A stretch of DNA of 64,000 nt from a virus. Shown piece after piece: positions 51,786 to 62,422 of the stretch. The notes under the pieces are model-generated. The model worked only from the letters and a program-made list of their open reading frames with translations, searched no databases and had not been told where the DNA came from. Made by a program: the position numbers and the translations under genes. The stretch is from positions 1,311-65,310 of IMG/VR virus record IMGVR_UViG_3300027973_002218, one strand, 5' to 3'. The stretch's first letter is position 1; every line of letters begins with the position of its first letter.

Positions 51786-54209
51786 ATGGCATATCAAAAT
51801 ATAAATCAATATAATTTTAGACGATGGGGTATTAAACCTGTCAACGAAGTCACGGACATTTGTCTCGCGTCAGATGAGAAAGACTACGACCAAGAAGTTA
51901 TTTTTTCACCATTGTTAATTGGTGAGGATAATGGTAATAGAATGCCTTTTAAATTTGACTTTAATAGTTCAGGGACTACAAAATGTCAAACAAATTCGTG
52001 TACATTTGATGATGATACTATTGTATCTGAAAACTATTGGAATCCGACTGATACAGACCCTAATTTTTGTCTCATTGTTACTGAGTTATGTGATGTTGGT
52101 TTGACAGGTATTGACAATGGACTTGTTAAAAACATGTCAGGTGAGACTATTGAAATCACAACTGGTCTTTACGAAACAGAGTCAGACAGATTTAGTAGAT
52201 ATAAATATGATAGGAGAATGAAAATGCACCCTATCACTGGTTTCACAACTTCAGAAAATAGATTGTGGAACGACAACTCTTATACCTATGATATGTATTA
52301 CGCCACAGATGGTAATCCTGTGGGTTATTTTGCCAGATTAAACGGAGGGTTTTTTCAAGGTTTTTATAAGTTACCAGGATACGACTATCAGGTGTTCCCT
52401 CAAAGAGTATCGTTAGGGTGGACAGCTGAATTTATGTTAAGATACAGATGGACAGGAGATACTTCTGTCGGACTTAATTCAAGGTATCCTGATAATAAGG
52501 GAACCTTTTTCTACATGGGAGCGAGAGCCGAAAACAAATTCTATCACTATGCTGATGGTGAACCAAAACAAGATACAGGGTATACAAGAGTGACCTCAGG
52601 GTTAACTTGTATGCATACTTGTGGATGTGCAAGTACTGCGAATACTTCATCTGAATGTCTACAGGTGTATCAACCATCGGGAGGTACGATAACTCATTGT
52701 ACTTGTGGTTGCCCTTGTGATTGTGAGTCACATGCCAAATATCCTGAAAAGGACCCGTTATATGATGGTGTGTCAAATGCGTTGTCTTTAAGATTAAGTG
52801 GAGATACAGGTAGTCCAAGACTATGTGTTAAGACATATAGAATAACAGGAGGGTGTGAACATAGTGGAACTTGTCTTACAGGATTGACTTACCACACTGG
52901 AACATCTGTAACCGAATGGTGTTCTACGAGAGGAATATTTGATGATTGTAGTGGGACTACTTATCCTAACGTTGAACATTGGGTTCAAATAGATGCCGTA
53001 TTTCAAAGAAAGGAATGGTTTGATACCTGTGACCTATATGAAAAAGGAGGACTTGGTTTGTTAGTTGATGATGTATATTTTGCAACATTAGAGAATAGAA
53101 GTGTAACATTAGTTGAACCTCCAATAACACATGACCCAGGATATATTCCACCTTCAACAGAGGTTGTTACGTTTACTGATATTTGGACCGAAGAACAAAA
53201 ATATAGATTAGGTACTCTTAAGTTTTATGTTAATGGTAAATTATTTTTGGTGGCTGAAAATTTCGAGGAAATAATTCCAAGACTTCTTAATGTTGAAAAA
53301 GAAAAACAAATTGGAGTTGGATATAATATTTCAGTTGGTGGTGGTACTCAAGGTCTTCACGACAACTTAACATTCTCTGCAGGGTGTCCCGCAGAGTTAA
53401 GTGGTATTACATATCAACAAGACCCTGAATGTTTAACAGATTATGACTTAGAACATACTGAATACTCAGGTCTTACAACTCAAATAAGGTTAGAAGAAAT
53501 TTTTGGTGGTAGTATGATTGGTGATGTTAGTGCATTTAGAATGTATACAGAACCATTAAACGCTTCTCAAATTAGACATAACTTTAAATTATTAAAGAAT
53601 AGATATAATTTATTAGACCCTAATTGTCTTAATTGTAGAATTTTTATTCCAAACAACGACTTGTTGTATATCTCAGTACCGTGTAATGATTTAGGATATT
53701 TGATGGTACCATGTAATGATTTGTTTTCTTCTTTATACCCATGTCCAACATCAACCCCTACTAACACTCCAACTACCACATCAACACCAACAAATACATC
53801 AACCCCTACTAACACTGAAACTCCAACTTCTACGGCTACTGTTGGATTAACACCAACTGCAACAGAAACTCAAACACCAACTCCAACTGAAACACCTACC
53901 AACACACCTACTAATACGGAAACTCCTACTAATACACCAACTCAAACTCCAACTAATACAGAAACGCCTACTAATACTCCAACTAATACAGAAACTCCAA
54001 CTCCTACTACTACTGAAACAGAAACACCTACTCCAACTCCTACAATTACAGAAACACCAACTAATACTCCAACTGAAACCTTAACTCCAACAACAACTTC
54101 AACGCCTACTCCAACAGTAACACCCACTGAACCATACTTCTTATTATTTGAAGATGATTCAGTTGCTACCGCAGAAAATAACGATAATATTGAAATAGAT
54201 ATAACATAA
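51786..54209 (+). CDS. large virion fibre-like protein: Cys-rich LamG/ConA-like region plus Pro/Thr tract
   Basis: HWVQIDAVF...LKFYVNGKL...[13 protein letters not shown] resembles LamG; TPT tract ~53745-54134. Confidence 0.55.
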
Positions 54210-54222
54210 AAAATAGATTAAA

Positions 54223-59885: not shown

Positions 59886-60756
59886 ATTTATAACATCAAT
59901 TTACAGTGACCTATATGGTACTGAATTTGGAGGTAGACCAAATAGAGGAGGACATTATAGGTATAGTTTGTTGTCACTTTTAAAGATGACAGACGCGGAT
60001 TTCCTATGTTACACTTCAGATAGAGAATTACCTTCATTAGAAGAGTTTTTTTATGTCGAATACTCAATTCCAAAAGACAAACTTAAGTTTCAGGTTTTTG
60101 ATATTGGAAATACCAAATTTAAAGATTTGATTAATCAATATAAGAATATTGAGGAAACTAAAAATGGAGACAGATGTGTTGAGGTTCAATACAGTAAGTT
60201 TCATTGGTGGTGGAACGAAGATAAATCTTATGATTATTATTATTGGATTGATGCTGGATTATCCCATTGTGGATTGATTCCCCTAAAGTATCTAACAAAT
60301 GAACATATTCAACAAAGATATTATGAAAGTAGTTTGTTTAATAATGATTTTTTAAAGAATCTTATTGAGGATACAAGTGATAAGTTTTTAATTTTAGGTA
60401 AAGAAAATGATAGAAACTATTGGTCGGGCACTGTTGATAGAAAATGGTATACTGAATACGATAGAAGTATTCATGTGATTGGTGGTATGTTTGGTGGACA
60501 CAGAGATAAGTGGGATGAGGTTGTTAATTTATTTGAAGACTATGTTCAAAAAATAATAACTGAAGATAAGGGTATACCACATGAAGAACACGTTATGACT
60601 TTAATGTATTTTAACCATTTAGATTTATTTGTTAGAAAACATTTCGATATTTGGTGGTGTAGAGACAACGCACCTAGAGGAGTTGATGAGGAACTCTTCT
60701 TAAACAATAAAAGCTTCTATAGAATATTAGAAGAATTTAATAGAATTTATGAGTAA
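59875..60756 (+). CDS. HtrL/YibB(WlaTC)-like glycosyltransferase
   Basis: YWIDAG, GGMFGG, EEHVMT. Confidence 0.6.
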   Translation: MSVKFITSIYSDLYGTEFGGRPNRGGHYRYSLLSLLKMTDADFLCYTSDRELPSLEEFFYVEYSIPKDKLKFQVFDIGNTKFKDLINQYKNIEETKNGDRCVEVQYSKFHWWWNEDKSYDYYYWIDAGLSHCGLIPLKYLTNEHIQQRYYESSLFNNDFLKNLIEDTSDKFLILGKENDRNYWSGTVDRKWYTEYDRSIHVIGGMFGGHRDKWDEVVNLFEDYVQKIITEDKGIPHEEHVMTLMYFNHLDLFVRKHFDIWWCRDNAPRGVDEELFLNNKSFYRILEEFNRIYE

Positions 60757-62422
60757 TATAACATTAGTAACAGGTATTTGGGATATTGGAAGAGGTGAAC
60801 TGACCGAAGGATGGTCAAGACCTTATCAACATTATTTAGATAAGTTTGAAAAACTTTTAGAGGTTGAAGAAAACTTAATAATCTTTGGAGACGAAGAATT
60901 AAAAGAATTTGTTTTTGAAAGAAGAAGTTCTAAAACCACTCAGTTTATTGTAAGACCATTAAGTTGGTTTACTAATTCAGAGTTTTTCCCAATGATTCAA
61001 AAAATAAGAACAAATCCAGAATGGTATAATCAAGTTGGTTGGTTAAAAGAATCTACTCAAGCAAGATTAGACAATTATAATCCATTGGTTATGTCTAAAG
61101 TTTTTTTATTACATGACGCCAAAATAATGGACCAATTTGATTCGGAATATATGTTTTGGATTGATGGTGGTTTAACGAATACAGTTCATCCAGGATACTT
61201 TACTCATGATAAAGTATTAAATAATTTATCAAAATATATTTCAAAATTTTCATTTGTTAGTTTTCCATACGGTGCTGAAACTGAAATACATGGATTTAAT
61301 TATGGTAAATTAAATGCTCTTGCTGGTGCCAAGGTTACCAAAGTTTCCAGAGGAGGATTTTTTGGTGGACCAAAACATACAATAAGTGATATTAACGGAA
61401 TTTATTACGGGTTACTTAAATCAACATTAGAAGATGGATACATGGGTACTGAAGAATCAATTTTCAGTATTATGGCTTATAAACATTCGGATATGATTAA
61501 CTATTTTGAAATTGAATCAAATGGTTTAATCGGAACATTTTTTGAAAATTTAAAAAACGATGAGCTCAAAGTTAAAAGTGAAAATACAGAAAAAGTTATC
61601 AATACTTTGGACCCAAACAAAGTTGGATTGTATGTTATTACATTCAATAGTCCAAAACAATTTAGAACTCTTATTGATTCTATGTTGGCATATGATAAGG
61701 ACTACATACTAAAAACTAAAAAGTTTTTGTTAGATAATTCAAGTGATTTGTCAACTACCGAGGAATACTCGGTAATTTGTAAAGAATTTGATTTTGAACA
61801 TATTAAAAAAGATAATTTAGGTATATGTGGTGGTAGACAATGGATTGCCGAACATTTTGATAAAACTGATTTAGATTATTATTTATTCTTTGAGGACGAT
61901 ATGTTCTTCTTTCCAAATGAAGGGACATCTTGTAGGAATGGATTCAATCGATATGTTTCCAATTTATATACAAAGTCTTTAGAAATTATTAAGAAAGAAA
62001 ATTTTGATTTTTTAAAGATGAATTATTCTGAGTTTTATGGAGACAATGGAACTCAGTGGGCTTGGTACAATGTTCCTCAACATGTAAGAGATGAGTTTTG
62101 GCCAGGTAAACCAAGACTTCCAGAAATGGGACTTGACCCTAATGCTCCAAAAACAGAATTCAATGCTGTGTTATCCCACAAGGGTGTTCCATATGCAGTT
62201 GGTGACGTTTATTATTGTAACTGGCCTCAGATTGTTAGTAGACCAGGAAATAAAAAAATGTTCTTAGATACAACATGGGCACATCCGTTTGAACAAACAT
62301 GGATGAGTCATATGTATCAGTTAGTTAAAAAAGATGAGTTGTACCCTGGGTTGTTACTTATGACACCAACAGAACACGATAGATTCGAACATTATAACAG
62401 AGAGCTGCGTAAAGAATCATAA
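60749..62422 (+). CDS. HtrL/YibB-like domain fused to a GT-A domain
   Basis: TLVTGIWDIGR, FWIDGG, GGFFGG, GTEESIFS; second domain NLGICGGRQ and FFEDD. Confidence 0.65.
   Translation: MSNITLVTGIWDIGRGELTEGWSRPYQHYLDKFEKLLEVEENLIIFGDEELKEFVFERRSSKTTQFIVRPLSWFTNSEFFPMIQKIRTNPEWYNQVGWLKESTQARLDNYNPLVMSKVFLLHDAKIMDQFDSEYMFWIDGGLTNTVHPGYFTHDKVLNNLSKYISKFSFVSFPYGAETEIHGFNYGKLNALAGAKVTKVSRGGFFGGPKHTISDINGIYYGLLKSTLEDGYMGTEESIFSIMAYKHSDMINYFEIESNGLIGTFFENLKNDELKVKSENTEKVINTLDPNKVGLYVITFNSPKQFRTLIDSMLAYDKDYILKTKKFLLDNSSDLSTTEEYSVICKEFDFEHIKKDNLGICGGRQWIAEHFDKTDLDYYLFFEDDMFFFPNEGTSCRNGFNRYVSNLYTKSLEIIKKENFDFLKMNYSEFYGDNGTQWAWYNVPQHVRDEFWPGKPRLPEMGLDPNAPKTEFNAVLSHKGVPYAVGDVYYCNWPQIVSRPGNKKMFLDTTWAHPFEQTWMSHMYQLVKKDELYPGLLLMTPTEHDRFEHYNRELRKES

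Follow-up and report, generated by a model that had tools for sequence, protein, structure and literature searches.

Genes for proteins with long Thr/Pro-rich tracts lie directly ahead of a group of putative glycosyltransferase (GT) genes in the phage DNA studied here, and the question raised by this locus is whether the phage glycosylates its own proteins. The window (the whole stretch of 64,000 nucleotides that was analysed) is part of the ~320-kb genome of a T4-like freshwater jumbo phage with a T4 gp23-like capsid, and the host probably belongs to the Bacteroidota. The relevant features are as follows.

3184..4002 (+): TPT272, 272 aa, tracts at residues 78-107, 113-185 and 199-213
29038..48980 (-): distal sugar cluster, soluble sugar-nucleotide enzymes and GTs
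49671-50144: protein with a short C-terminal PT tail
51786..54209 (+): TPT807, 807 aa, tracts at residues 649-682 and 687-785
54223..54966 (+): collagen-like (G-T/S-S)n fibre protein, Pfam Collagen 4.3e-14
54968..55537 (+): TPT189, 189 aa, tract at residues 65-109
55571..56680 (+): TPT369, 369 aa, three tracts
56750..57796 (+): TPT348, 348 aa, three tracts, directly upstream of GT60
57821..57852 (+): strong intrinsic terminator, 14-pair stem followed by a T-run
57877..59142 (+): GT60-family GT-A glycosyltransferase, PF11397 E 2.7e-66
59142..59885 (+): GT25-like protein, PF01755 2.7e-8, residues 7-44 only
59875..60756 (+): 293-aa cassette protein, conserved partner of GT60 and HtrL557
60749..62422 (+): HtrL557, HtrL_YibB N-domain (PF09612 3.8e-20) and a second GT-like domain
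62439..62816 (+): conserved 125-aa ORF between the cassette and PolB

The gene layout described in the first-pass annotation was confirmed for both ORFs and tracts: four TPT genes, with the collagen-like G-T/S-S gene among them, are consecutive upstream of GT60, and a fifth TPT gene is located at 3184. The tracts total 565 residues (45% Thr and 22% Pro) in a period-4 x-T-P-T pattern and are far above chance; the reversed TPTxTPT pattern had 0 matches in a complete relative with 74 forward matches. In TPT807, a Cys-rich conserved N-domain of 645 aa precedes a TPT tract of ~135 aa. This protein has 1391 relatives, and the 120 matches listed share 80-98% identity with the N-domain conserved; in many of them the tract is followed by a C-terminal domain (PF13385 or PF03382) that is variable. 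Language-model features, and these only, give a lead that the N-domain is LamG-like. TPT189, with homologues in most related loci, has two small domains linked by a 45-aa tract, and in both TPT348 and TPT369, the latter resembling beads on a string, tracts separate three small domains. TPT272 is encoded ~5 kb ahead of the terminase gene and has a homologue in the complete relative G001. We regard TPT272 as a candidate acceptor and TPT807 as a candidate acceptor or fibre. No TM-level hydrophobicity was detected in any 19-residue window of the GTs or of the five proteins upstream of GT60.

A TATTTAT motif is present 16 nt upstream of TPT807, 11 nt upstream of TPT369, and 22 nt upstream of TPT272. 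It is common to the TPT genes and the portal, protease, and scaffold-like genes; its window-wide frequency is not above chance, and it is enriched solely in position and orientation. We propose that the TPT genes are expressed from late-type promoters. The motif is absent ahead of GT60, and the terminator sets the TPT genes apart from the GT operon.

The assignment of the enzyme behind this terminator to GT60 was borne out by the HMM search (PF11397, 224.9 bits against a cut-off of 21) and by a confident structural model. The protein also matches phrog_24687 (5e-166) and has a C-terminal beta-rich domain at approximately residues 326-414. For the AF2 model (pLDDT 94.5), the best Swiss-Prot fold match is Dictyostelium Gnt1 (Q8T1C6, E 2.8e-24, TM 0.65), followed by dozens of polypeptide GalNAc-transferases, and nearly all of the top 50 solved-structure matches are GT27 enzymes. 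Residues D92-x-H94, E204, E205, R211, and H229 are invariant across 42 sequences. We propose that the enzyme is an initiating polypeptide HexNAc-transferase.

The protist enzymes T. cruzi TcOGNT-2, Dictyostelium Gnt2/GntB, and Gnt1 belong to the same Pfam family, which the phage enzyme matches with a high score and with DxH kept, and the likely phage acceptor is a Thr/Pro-rich mucin-like tract comparable to the T. cruzi peptide KPPTTTTTTTTKPP. The T. cruzi and Dictyostelium GT60 enzymes are Mn2+-dependent and transfer alpha-GlcNAc onto Thr in mucin-like tracts (PMC3769586). Like Gnt1, which is cytoplasmic and acts on Skp1-Hyp, the phage GT60 is soluble and cytoplasmic, but the identity is only 23%. 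In contrast to the protist enzymes, it is encoded by a tailed phage (and also by bacteria), has an extra C-terminal beta domain, and is partnered with an HtrL/YibB-like two-domain protein, a partner missing from the protist pathways. The GT-A fold with DxH...H is shared with the animal GT27 polypeptide GalNAc-transferases, which are mucin-type initiators that densely modify Thr/Pro-rich tandem repeats. However, the phage GT60 belongs to another CAZy family, lacks a ricin-type lectin domain, and is not a Golgi enzyme, and no sequence-level match between GT60 and GT27 was found.

The acceptor could instead be hydroxyproline, with GT60 adding GlcNAc in the manner of Skp1 after phage 2OG-Fe(II) prolyl-hydroxylase-like enzymes have acted on the Pro of T-P-T. 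Gnt1, the nearest characterised fold relative, is a Skp1-Hyp GlcNAc-transferase, each of three complete relatives has three PF13640 (P4H-type) oxygenases, and fusions with 2OG-Fe(II) oxygenase domains occur among distant GT60 representatives. However, no oxygenase was found within the window or near the cassette in the complete relatives (the nearest is ~40 kb off, in G001), nor was an oxygenase Pfam family present among the called genes of the three bacterial neighbourhoods inspected. The tracts also contain twice as much Thr as Pro, and Thr is the target of the Golgi GT60 enzymes (PMC3769586). We consider the hydroxyproline route unlikely; the sugar may be GlcNAc, and the acceptor is most likely Thr.

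GT60 is followed in its operon by the partial GT25-like protein, the 293-aa protein, and the two-domain HtrL/YibB-like protein, and the cassette abuts PolB. The enzyme roster in the first-pass annotation held for GT60 and for HtrL/YibB at 60749-62422, but the GT25 match (PF01755, 34.4 bits against a cut-off of 24) covers residues 7-44 only. The second HtrL-like enzyme assigned to 59875-60756 is weakly supported, because the 293-aa protein has just a weak GG[MF]FGG...EE motif in common with the HtrL domain (pairwise E 0.001); searches of Pfam, PHROG, and NCBIfam gave zero matches for it. Its homologues occur in the XacN1 and Xoo-sp13 cassettes (28-29%) and also in some bacterial cassettes. The GT25-like protein, a proposed extending transferase, occurs with 48-93% identity in most loci of the window's own clade. 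HtrL557 is the most faithful partner of GT60, with 39-40% identity in XacN1 and Xoo-sp13, 39-48% in a second phage clade, and, among the 80 best bacterial GT60 loci, a homologue in 33; it matches TIGR02192 at 1.3e-22, under that model's cut-off. The 125-aa ORF past the cassette is kept at 65-100% identity in own-clade loci and has TATTTAT 11 nt upstream, with zero family matches in Pfam and PHROG.

The distal cluster contains GT2, GT1/4, GT10, and GT11 enzymes and a two-domain GT together with an epimerase, a DegT aminotransferase, a hexapeptide acetyltransferase, a UDP-Glc dehydrogenase, and a methyltransferase. Genes for PhoH, NAD synthase, dUTPase, and an exonuclease lie among them. It is possible that this cluster supplies donors and extenders.

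The proximity of PolB, the T4 gp23-like capsid, and a weak match of the HtrL557 C-domain to the T-even beta-glucosyl-HMC alpha-glucosyltransferase family (phrog_842, 3.9e-4) would fit GTs that glycosylate phage DNA bases against restriction, as in the T-even phages. However, the sole thymidylate-synthase-family gene of the complete relatives has the score of a true ThyA (TIGR03284, 303 bits against a cut-off of 108) and ThyX is absent from them, so that no route to hydroxymethyl pyrimidines was found. The distal cluster includes a dUTPase, GT60 is not among the known DNA-GT families, and its bacterial contexts are protein-secretion loci. DNA glycosylation is thus highly improbable.

The association of GT60 with TPT genes, for which the first-pass annotation proposed a test in related phages, was recovered in unrelated phage lineages and in bacteria, and both are absent from near relatives. 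In the window's own clade, a TPT ORF is upstream of GT60 in 77 of 80 related IMG/VR loci, the remaining 3 having no upstream DNA in the record, and tract lengths are highly variable. GT60 is held by only 4 of 50,697 deposited phage records; it occurs at 43-48% identity in XacN1, Xoo-sp13, CM1, and RAS14. Homologues of the 293-aa protein and HtrL557 were checked in two of these phages, XacN1 and Xoo-sp13, and found in both. A second IMG/VR clade has tandem GT60 genes and a TPT-tract ORF within 10 kb in 21 of 38 loci (tract of >=20 aa in 19 of 38), mostly upstream; about half of its loci have no TPT gene within that distance. These TPT ORFs are non-homologous to the TPT proteins of the window.

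Presence and absence were compared by counting the TPTxTPT DNA pattern per phage record. GT60-positive records had 74, 51, 51, 29, 22, 13, 3, 3, 2, 0, and 0 sites. The seven complete or full-length records had 2 to 74 sites each, with just 3 and 2 in the complete genomes G005 and G009; of the four partial records, two had sites and two, fragments 64% complete, had none. No sites were found in 23 GT60-negative records (~3.7 Mb), among them the phages closest to XacN1 by tail sheath and those closest to the window by capsid, in a contrast that draws on approximately three independent lineages only. Judged by sequence, only the GT cassette appears to be common between lineages, and the TPT carriers appear non-homologous.

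XacN1 (Yoshikawa et al. 2018, PMC5852040) is a cultured Xanthomonas phage of a different, Rak2-like lineage, with a gammaproteobacterial host, and it has the same cassette, with ORF334 as the GT60 homologue and ORF332 and ORF330 as the partners. Its long TPTVTPT tracts are in ORF369, ORF370, and ORF372 (just past the tail sheath) and in ORF350, ORF384, and ORF325 (past the baseplate wedge). The non-repeat domains of the window's proteins had zero matches in the XacN1 regions examined (~85 kb). XacN1 virions gave at least two periodic acid-Schiff-positive bands, the proteins of which were not named (PMC5852040, Suppl. Fig. S4). The authors proposed that the two GTs of the phage, one of them ORF334, account for these bands, but recognised neither the GT60 family, the partners, nor the TP tracts (PMC5852040).

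In bacteria, a Ralstonia T6SS cluster contains a GT60-HtrL pair adjoining PAAR and a VgrG whose (TP)n tail is ~130 aa long. In four bacterial phyla, the pair adjoins small TPT proteins with a twin-arginine signal, in some cases with a PqqD-like peptide-binding domain. In two bacterial genomes, the TPT ORF at the GT60 locus contains the main TPTxTPT cluster genome-wide. However, the GT60 family is not bound to TP tracts everywhere, because Sphingobacterium zeae and Chitinophaga oryziterrae have GT60 homologues but ~0 TPTxTPT sites. A Gemmatimonadaceae GT60 locus also has Bac_transf and GT1 genes.

The latter two findings would suit a cassette that, with the 20-kb cluster, builds or remodels a glycan of the host envelope, be it LPS, capsule, or exopolysaccharide, for instance as a superinfection block, the TPT tracts being unmodified flexible linkers. 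The names GT25 and HtrL/YibB derive from LPS gene clusters, and a jumbo-phage review interprets the GT clusters of phages as systems that modify capsular polysaccharide (PMC7824862). However, the cassette encodes no membrane protein, be it a flippase, a polymerase, an initiating phosphotransferase, or another, the GT60 fold is nearest to polypeptide-acting GT-A enzymes, and the link between GT60 and TP tracts holds in unrelated phages. The bacterial contexts (T6SS, twin-arginine signal, and PqqD) also argue against envelope remodelling, which we regard as improbable.

That the TPT proteins are virion parts is suggested by the late-type upstream motif shared with head genes, by the variable lectin-like C-domains in relatives, as in receptor-binding proteins, and by the XacN1 TPT genes in tail and baseplate modules of a phage whose virions stain for glycoprotein. 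The collagen-like protein, in which a KISALP-type N-terminus is combined with a beta-rich C-domain, is the only member with structural matches (phrog_5073, tail fiber, 5e-16 over residues 41-228; phrog_38766, virion structural protein, 3.6e-9). Among the five proteins that precede GT60, the other four had zero structural-family matches in Pfam and PHROG, and in G001 the neighbours of other TPT genes also had almost none, being mostly unknown or DNA-metabolism genes. These two observations favour glycosylated carriers that are intracellular or released at lysis, such as decoys or matrix binders. Given the evidence for a virion location, non-virion carriers are quite unlikely.

The rivals to mucin-type glycosylation are weak, and we put the probability that the phage has a mucin-type system for protein O-glycosylation that is self-contained and cytoplasmic at roughly 60%. 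Chloroviruses glycosylate their capsid, and mimivirus glycosylates its fibrils. Serine-rich-repeat adhesins (GtfA/GtfB) and bacterial autotransporters are glycosylated in the cytoplasm before export. As in the phage cassette, soluble GTs adjoin a repeat-rich substrate gene in these bacterial systems, but they use other GT families (GT4, BAHT), other repeats, and a dedicated export route. Mycobacteriophages, chloroviruses, and mimiviruses modify their own structural proteins in the cytoplasm with virus-encoded soluble GTs and have large virus-encoded sugar-nucleotide clusters, but the GT families are different, and none of these viruses is known to use mucin-like TP linkers started by GT60. In mycobacteriophages, the capsid and tail-tube subunits are reported to bear their glycans at the C-termini (Freeman et al. 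2023, cited in PMC12619734). No published account of phages with a GT60/TP-tract system was found. The novelty claimed in the first-pass annotation calls for one correction: virion glycosylation by phage GTs was proposed earlier for XacN1 (PMC5852040), and what is probably new is the link of the GT60 family and TP tracts to phage virion protein glycosylation.

In the mucin-type pathway that we propose, phage proteins in which (x-T-P-T)n tracts link small globular domains would be made from late-type promoters without export signals. The soluble GT60 enzyme, from its own operon behind the terminator, would add the first sugar to the tracts, probably an alpha-linked HexNAc from a UDP-sugar with a DxH...H-bound metal, and most likely to Thr, less likely to hydroxylated Pro. 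The HtrL/YibB-like, 293-aa, and GT25-like proteins would then extend the chain, to which the 20-kb sugar-nucleotide/GT cluster may contribute. The recurrence of the TPT-GT60 pairing in unrelated phages and bacteria indicates that the phage probably sugar-coats its own proteins, and the resulting linkers on exposed phage appendages would be stiff, resistant to proteases, and covered with glycans.

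The viral contig is 65.6 kb long, 64 kb of which form the window, and it encodes the large terminase, the portal, the prohead protease, and a T4 gp23-like major capsid protein. The nearest cultured relatives by capsid are Flavobacterium phage immuto and Microcystis phage Mel-JY01, both at 42% identity. Complete IMG/VR relatives of the phage are about 320 kb long with terminal repeats, indicating that the window covers part of the genome of a freshwater jumbo phage. When the whole region was compared with deposited phages by megablast, the collagen repeat alone was matched, in two uncultured records. 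The N terminus of the minus-strand protein at 24067-25602 (…IEDPMMLGRIRGVRL…) looks like those of gp5/VgrG-type baseplate spike proteins. This protein, which had no family match, may belong to a baseplate module with its neighbors (22538-24046 and 25806-27902). The genes and the terminator discussed below are the following.

3184-4002, 272-aa protein with (x-T-P-T)n tracts (TPT protein)
51786-54209, 807-aa TPT protein
54223-54966, collagen-like (G-T/S-S)n protein
54968-55537, 189-aa TPT protein
55571-56680, 369-aa TPT protein
56750-57796, 348-aa TPT protein
57821-57852, terminator with a 14-bp stem, between the TPT/collagen-like genes and the glycosyltransferase (GT) operon
57877-59142, GT60 enzyme
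59142-59885, GT25-like protein
59875-60756, 293-aa protein
60749-62422, 557-aa HtrL-like protein (HtrL557)
62439-62816, 125-aa protein

The open reading frames (ORFs) and repeats were as the first-pass annotation had described them. The TPT tracts of the window sum to 565 residues (45% Thr and 22% Pro), repeat with a period of four (x-T-P-T, for example TPTE), and set apart small globular domains of 55 to 80 aa. In the 807-aa protein, the tracts come after a highly conserved, Cys-rich domain of 645 aa, for which the AlphaFold2 (AF2) model was unusable (pLDDT of 25.7; the alignment was shallow, with 20 sequences that were ≥80% identical). Relatives of this protein (P0132, P0216, and others) keep the N-terminal domain and the TP tract and differ in their terminal domains, which are LamG-type (PF13385) or DUF285 (PF03382), and the copy in the window ends directly after the tract. 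Modular swapping of C-terminal domains is typical of receptor-binding proteins. The five genes upstream of GT60 had been taken for virion genes. Homology favors this for the collagen-like protein, the fifth gene of the run and the only one with matches to tail fiber PHROGs, which reach beyond the repeat; the four TPT proteins had matches to phrog_15511 alone, a family of unknown function, and these came from the repeat. PHROG scans of the large proteins beside other TPT genes in a complete relative gave almost no structural calls. We nevertheless consider it probable that at least some of the tract carriers are exposed on the virion, and improbable that they are not virion parts.

The heptamer TATTTAT was found within 40 nt of gene starts 17 times in the sense and 7 times in the antisense orientation in the window, the sense sites including 3162, 9863, 13209, 14593, 51770, 55560, 56724, and 62428. 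The genes it precedes include those for the portal, the protease, a scaffold-like protein, and four TPT proteins, with the GT operon excepted. Over the whole window, the motif GTATTTAT was not overrepresented (7 observed versus 6.8 expected). TATTTAT is a candidate late promoter element that is notable only by its position before starts, its overall count being at chance level.

The protein at 57877-59142, which had been called GT60-like from sequence, clearly matched PF11397 (224.9 bits; cut-off, 21; E value, 2.7e-66). The best stretch covered profile positions 96 to 351, an N-terminal stretch was also matched, and the match was recovered on relatives as well. An AF2 model from an alignment with 42 diverse homologues reached a pLDDT of 94.5 and a pTM of 0.89. 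Its top Foldseek match in Swiss-Prot was Q8T1C6, the Dictyostelium Skp1-Hyp GlcNAc-transferase Gnt1 (E value, 2.8e-24; TM score, 0.65). Ranks 2 to 30 in Swiss-Prot and nearly all of the 50 top matches in the PDB were ppGalNAc-Ts, so that the predicted fold is of the GT-A type, nearest to Gnt1 and with GT27 as a related family. Residues D92-S-H94 and H229, candidates for the metal-binding DxH motif and the distal His of Mn2+-dependent retaining transfer, did not vary among 42 sequences with identities as low as 34%. GT60 enzymes transfer alpha-GlcNAc onto Thr of mucin-like tracts with Mn2+ (PMC3769586). From gene neighborhoods only, we infer that the acceptor of the phage enzyme is a polypeptide.

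The cassette partners fit their earlier names less evenly. The protein at 59142-59885 scored above the cut-off for GT25 (PF01755), yet with residues 7 to 44 against profile positions 3 to 40 of 199. A full-length GT25 domain was not found, and a PDB search gave no solved homologue and chance-level matches only, so that it is best described as GT25-like at the N terminus only. Two HtrL/YibB-like enzymes had been proposed, and one of them stands: 60749-62422 matched PF09612 over residues 3 to 252 (73 bits; cut-off, 24.1), with a second domain following, whereas 59875-60756 matched neither PF09612 nor TIGR02192 and fell in no family. Because HtrL557 scored 80.8 against TIGR02192, an NCBIfam equivalog with a cut-off of 264.9, it is a relative rather than an orthologue of Escherichia coli YibB. 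PDB sequence searches with GT60 and HtrL557 returned no match.

The GT60 family is large in environmental phage sequence (>7,000 clusters at 90% identity), and relatives of the window's enzyme were encoded on 387 IMG/VR stretches. In the best 80 of these, which belong to its own clade, GT60 identity was 86 to 99%, and the gene order was conserved as TPT genes, GT60, GT25-like, 293-aa protein, HtrL557, 125-aa protein, and PolB. TPT ORFs lay upstream in 77 of these 80 loci, and the remaining 3 had no upstream DNA; across own-clade loci, the tracts varied from tens to >900 residues. Only four of 50,697 deposited phage records encoded GT60, namely XacN1, Xoo-sp13, CM1, and RAS14, all of them Rak2-like jumbo phages with Xanthomonas or Stenotrophomonas hosts. 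The 293-aa and HtrL557 partners and a carbamoyltransferase are shared by XacN1 and Xoo-sp13, the pair inspected for these genes. In the neighborhood of the XacN1 cassette are baseplate wedge genes and the gene for a PT-linker protein of 3,313 aa. ORF369, ORF370, and ORF372 of XacN1, directly after the tail sheath genes, are filled with long TPTVTPT-type tracts, which also occur in ORF350 and the 2,823-aa ORF384. TP tracts were confirmed in all three cultured phages that were checked (XacN1, Xoo-sp13, and RAS14). The nonrepeat parts of the window's proteins had no match in the XacN1 regions examined. A second IMG/VR clade (L112 to L130, L140, and L141) has two tandem GT60 paralogues at about 8700-11300 of the loci, followed by further genes including an HtrL557 homologue. 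In this clade, a TPT tract ORF lay no more than 10 kb away in 21 of 38 loci, the tract reaching ≥20 aa in 19 of these, and the remaining loci had none within that distance. These ORFs are mostly upstream and are unrelated to the tract carriers of the window. A further phage query, P0298, returned one locus.

We then surveyed tracts by counting a degenerate DNA pattern for TPTxTPT over whole records; blastn with TPT-coding DNA was dropped because it was insensitive and missed XacN1. The GT60 search was validated on positive records. The GT60-negative set comprised the nearest tail sheath relatives of XacN1 (RsoM2USA, Atu_ph07, PA5oct, and E. coli phage A4), the phages closest to the window by capsid (immuto, Mel-JY01, Syn19, RM378, and LR756508), and 14 immuto-like IMG/VR contigs. 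The association expected if GT60 acts on TPT tracts was observed: 9 of 11 GT60-positive records contained TPTxTPT sites (counts of 74, 51, 51, 29, 22, 13, 3, 3, and 2), and none of the 23 GT60-negative records did (~3.7 Mb). The two GT60-positive records with a count of zero were fragments, each 64% complete. A reversed-pattern control gave 0, with a maximum of 1, per phage record. The contrasts come from about three independent lineages, making the comparative evidence strong but not overwhelming, and taken alone, a link between GT60 and TP tracts is quite likely. The GTs might instead remodel host glycans, as the names GT25 and HtrL and a review's interpretation of phage GT clusters (PMC7824862) would suggest. 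However, neither the GTs nor the five proteins upstream of GT60 contain a transmembrane-grade hydrophobic stretch, and such a role, for which no membrane components were seen, leaves the TP tract correlation unexplained; we regard it as unlikely.

Staining data exist for XacN1, whose virions contain at least two periodic acid-Schiff-positive bands for which its authors proposed two GTs, ORF328 and ORF334, as the cause (PMC5852040). ORF334 is the GT60 homologue. The paper and its supplement do not assign the bands to ORFs and are silent on the presence of TP tract ORFs in virions (PMC5852040).

Soluble glycan enzymes are also encoded in a 20-kb minus-strand cluster of the window, which contains the following.

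Minus strand, glycosyltransferases: GT2, GT1/4, GT10, GT11, and a two-domain GT
Minus strand, further enzymes: epimerase, DegT aminotransferase, acetyltransferase, UDP-Glc dehydrogenase, and methyltransferase
31765-32505, 44015-44818, and 46451-47068, minus strand, scattered inside the cluster: PhoH, NAD synthase, and dUTPase

In the reading that we favor, with a probability of about 0.62, appendage proteins with TP linkers would be expressed late and O-glycosylated in the cytoplasm, with GT60 starting the glycan and the conserved partners lengthening the chain; sugar donors would perhaps come from the distal cluster. Glycosylation of DNA by these GTs can be largely rejected. The complete relatives have one thymidylate synthase family gene, which scores as a true ThyA, and no ThyX, so that no route to hydroxymethyl bases was found.

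The acceptor could also be hydroxyproline rather than Thr. Each complete relative encodes three P4H-type oxygenases (2OG-Fe(II), PF13640), which in G001, a complete relative of 321 kb, lie as follows.

28772-29065, PF13640 oxygenase
152970-153233, PF13640 oxygenase
162023-162214, PF13640 oxygenase

Moreover, distant GT60s are fused to 2OG-Fe(II) oxygenase domains: the metagenomic proteins P0242 (2,461 aa) and P0243 (1,641 aa) combine several GT60 domains with such domains, a layout that echoes the logic of Skp1 hydroxylation and GlcNAc addition; P0242 additionally has an AhpC/TSA-like domain. However, no P4H-type oxygenase adjoins the cassette, and we think a hydroxyproline acceptor doubtful.

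Bacterial genomes also carry the proposed pairing of GT60 with Thr/Pro tracts. At least 559 stretches of GTDB species genomes encode GT60 relatives, and among the best 80, 33 had an HtrL557 homologue and 23 had an ORF with a TP tract of ≥30 residues. On the Ralstonia sp. 25C chromosome (L322, 10001-15146), GT60 lies inside a type VI secretion system (T6SS) cluster between TssA/fimbrial-like genes and PAAR, which adjoins a VgrG (Phage_GPD, 2e-91) with a C-terminal (TP)n tail of ~130 residues. Achromobacter and Paraburkholderia GT60 loci resemble this one in containing an ORF of 823 or 829 aa whose (TP)n tail exceeds 100 residues; the Achromobacter ORF, the one of the two that was read, begins like VgrG. 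Loci of the Ralstonia type suggest glycosylated T6SS spikes. In Luminiphilus/Congregibacter, Vicinamibacterales, a deltaproteobacterium, and an Acidimicrobiaceae metagenome-assembled genome (MAG), HtrL and GT60 adjoin a gene for a small protein that combines a twin-arginine-type signal (RRxLLQ or RRQFVK as read) with a long TP tract (L300/L323, L317, L280, L271, L303, and L310, flanking GT60 at about 10001). Some of these proteins have a C-terminal hydrophobic anchor, and some loci have a PqqD-like peptide-binding protein nearby. In these loci, one gene called automatically runs across the repeat on the opposite strand. In Gemmatimonadaceae, GT60 and HtrL come immediately after a gene for a PqqD domain protein that carries a TP tail, and in the Vicinamibacterales and Acidimicrobiaceae genomes the TP ORF beside GT60 is the main TPTxTPT cluster of the genome. 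Sphingobacterium zeae and Chitinophaga oryziterrae, with GT60 homologues at 39 to 40% identity, had almost no TPTxTPT sites. The cellular GT60/HtrL pair closest to that of the phage, among the best 80 of the at least 559 loci, was in a Saprospiraceae MAG (L244, 8504-13100) at 69% and 62% identity, and the phage genes have therefore probably been exchanged with the host; the pair is a possible clue to that host. It is divergent from a gene for an S/T-P tract protein with an RR signal and a type IX secretion system (T9SS) C-terminal sorting domain. An RR-type signal with T9SS sorting is an odd combination.

To our knowledge, very few systems for virion protein glycosylation are known in tailed phages, and we know of mucin-type initiation by GT60 from protists only. 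In the literature searched, we found no mention of PF11397 and, among publications pairing GT60 with bacteriophage, none on a GT60/TP tract system. In a 2025 study of large Bacteroidota phages from aquatic habitats, core GTs are listed with function unresolved (PMC12619734). Virus-encoded virion glycosylation and mucin-type initiation are each known already. There is about an even chance that GT60 and the HtrL557-type protein form a widespread and hitherto undescribed module in prokaryotes that adds mucin-type O-glycans to Thr/Pro tracts in the cytoplasm, on proteins that are exported after folding, with jumbo phage appendages, (TP)n spikes of T6SS VgrG, and twin-arginine or T9SS-sorted surface proteins as its clients. 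If so, the fibers of environmental jumbo phages would carry a mucin-like glycan coat. A real link between GT60 and the tracts would mean mucin-like coats on many large freshwater and soil phages and on some bacterial secretion substrates, with consequences for how hosts are recognized, for resistance to proteases and grazing, for the stickiness of particles, and possibly for the immune recognition of therapeutic phages.
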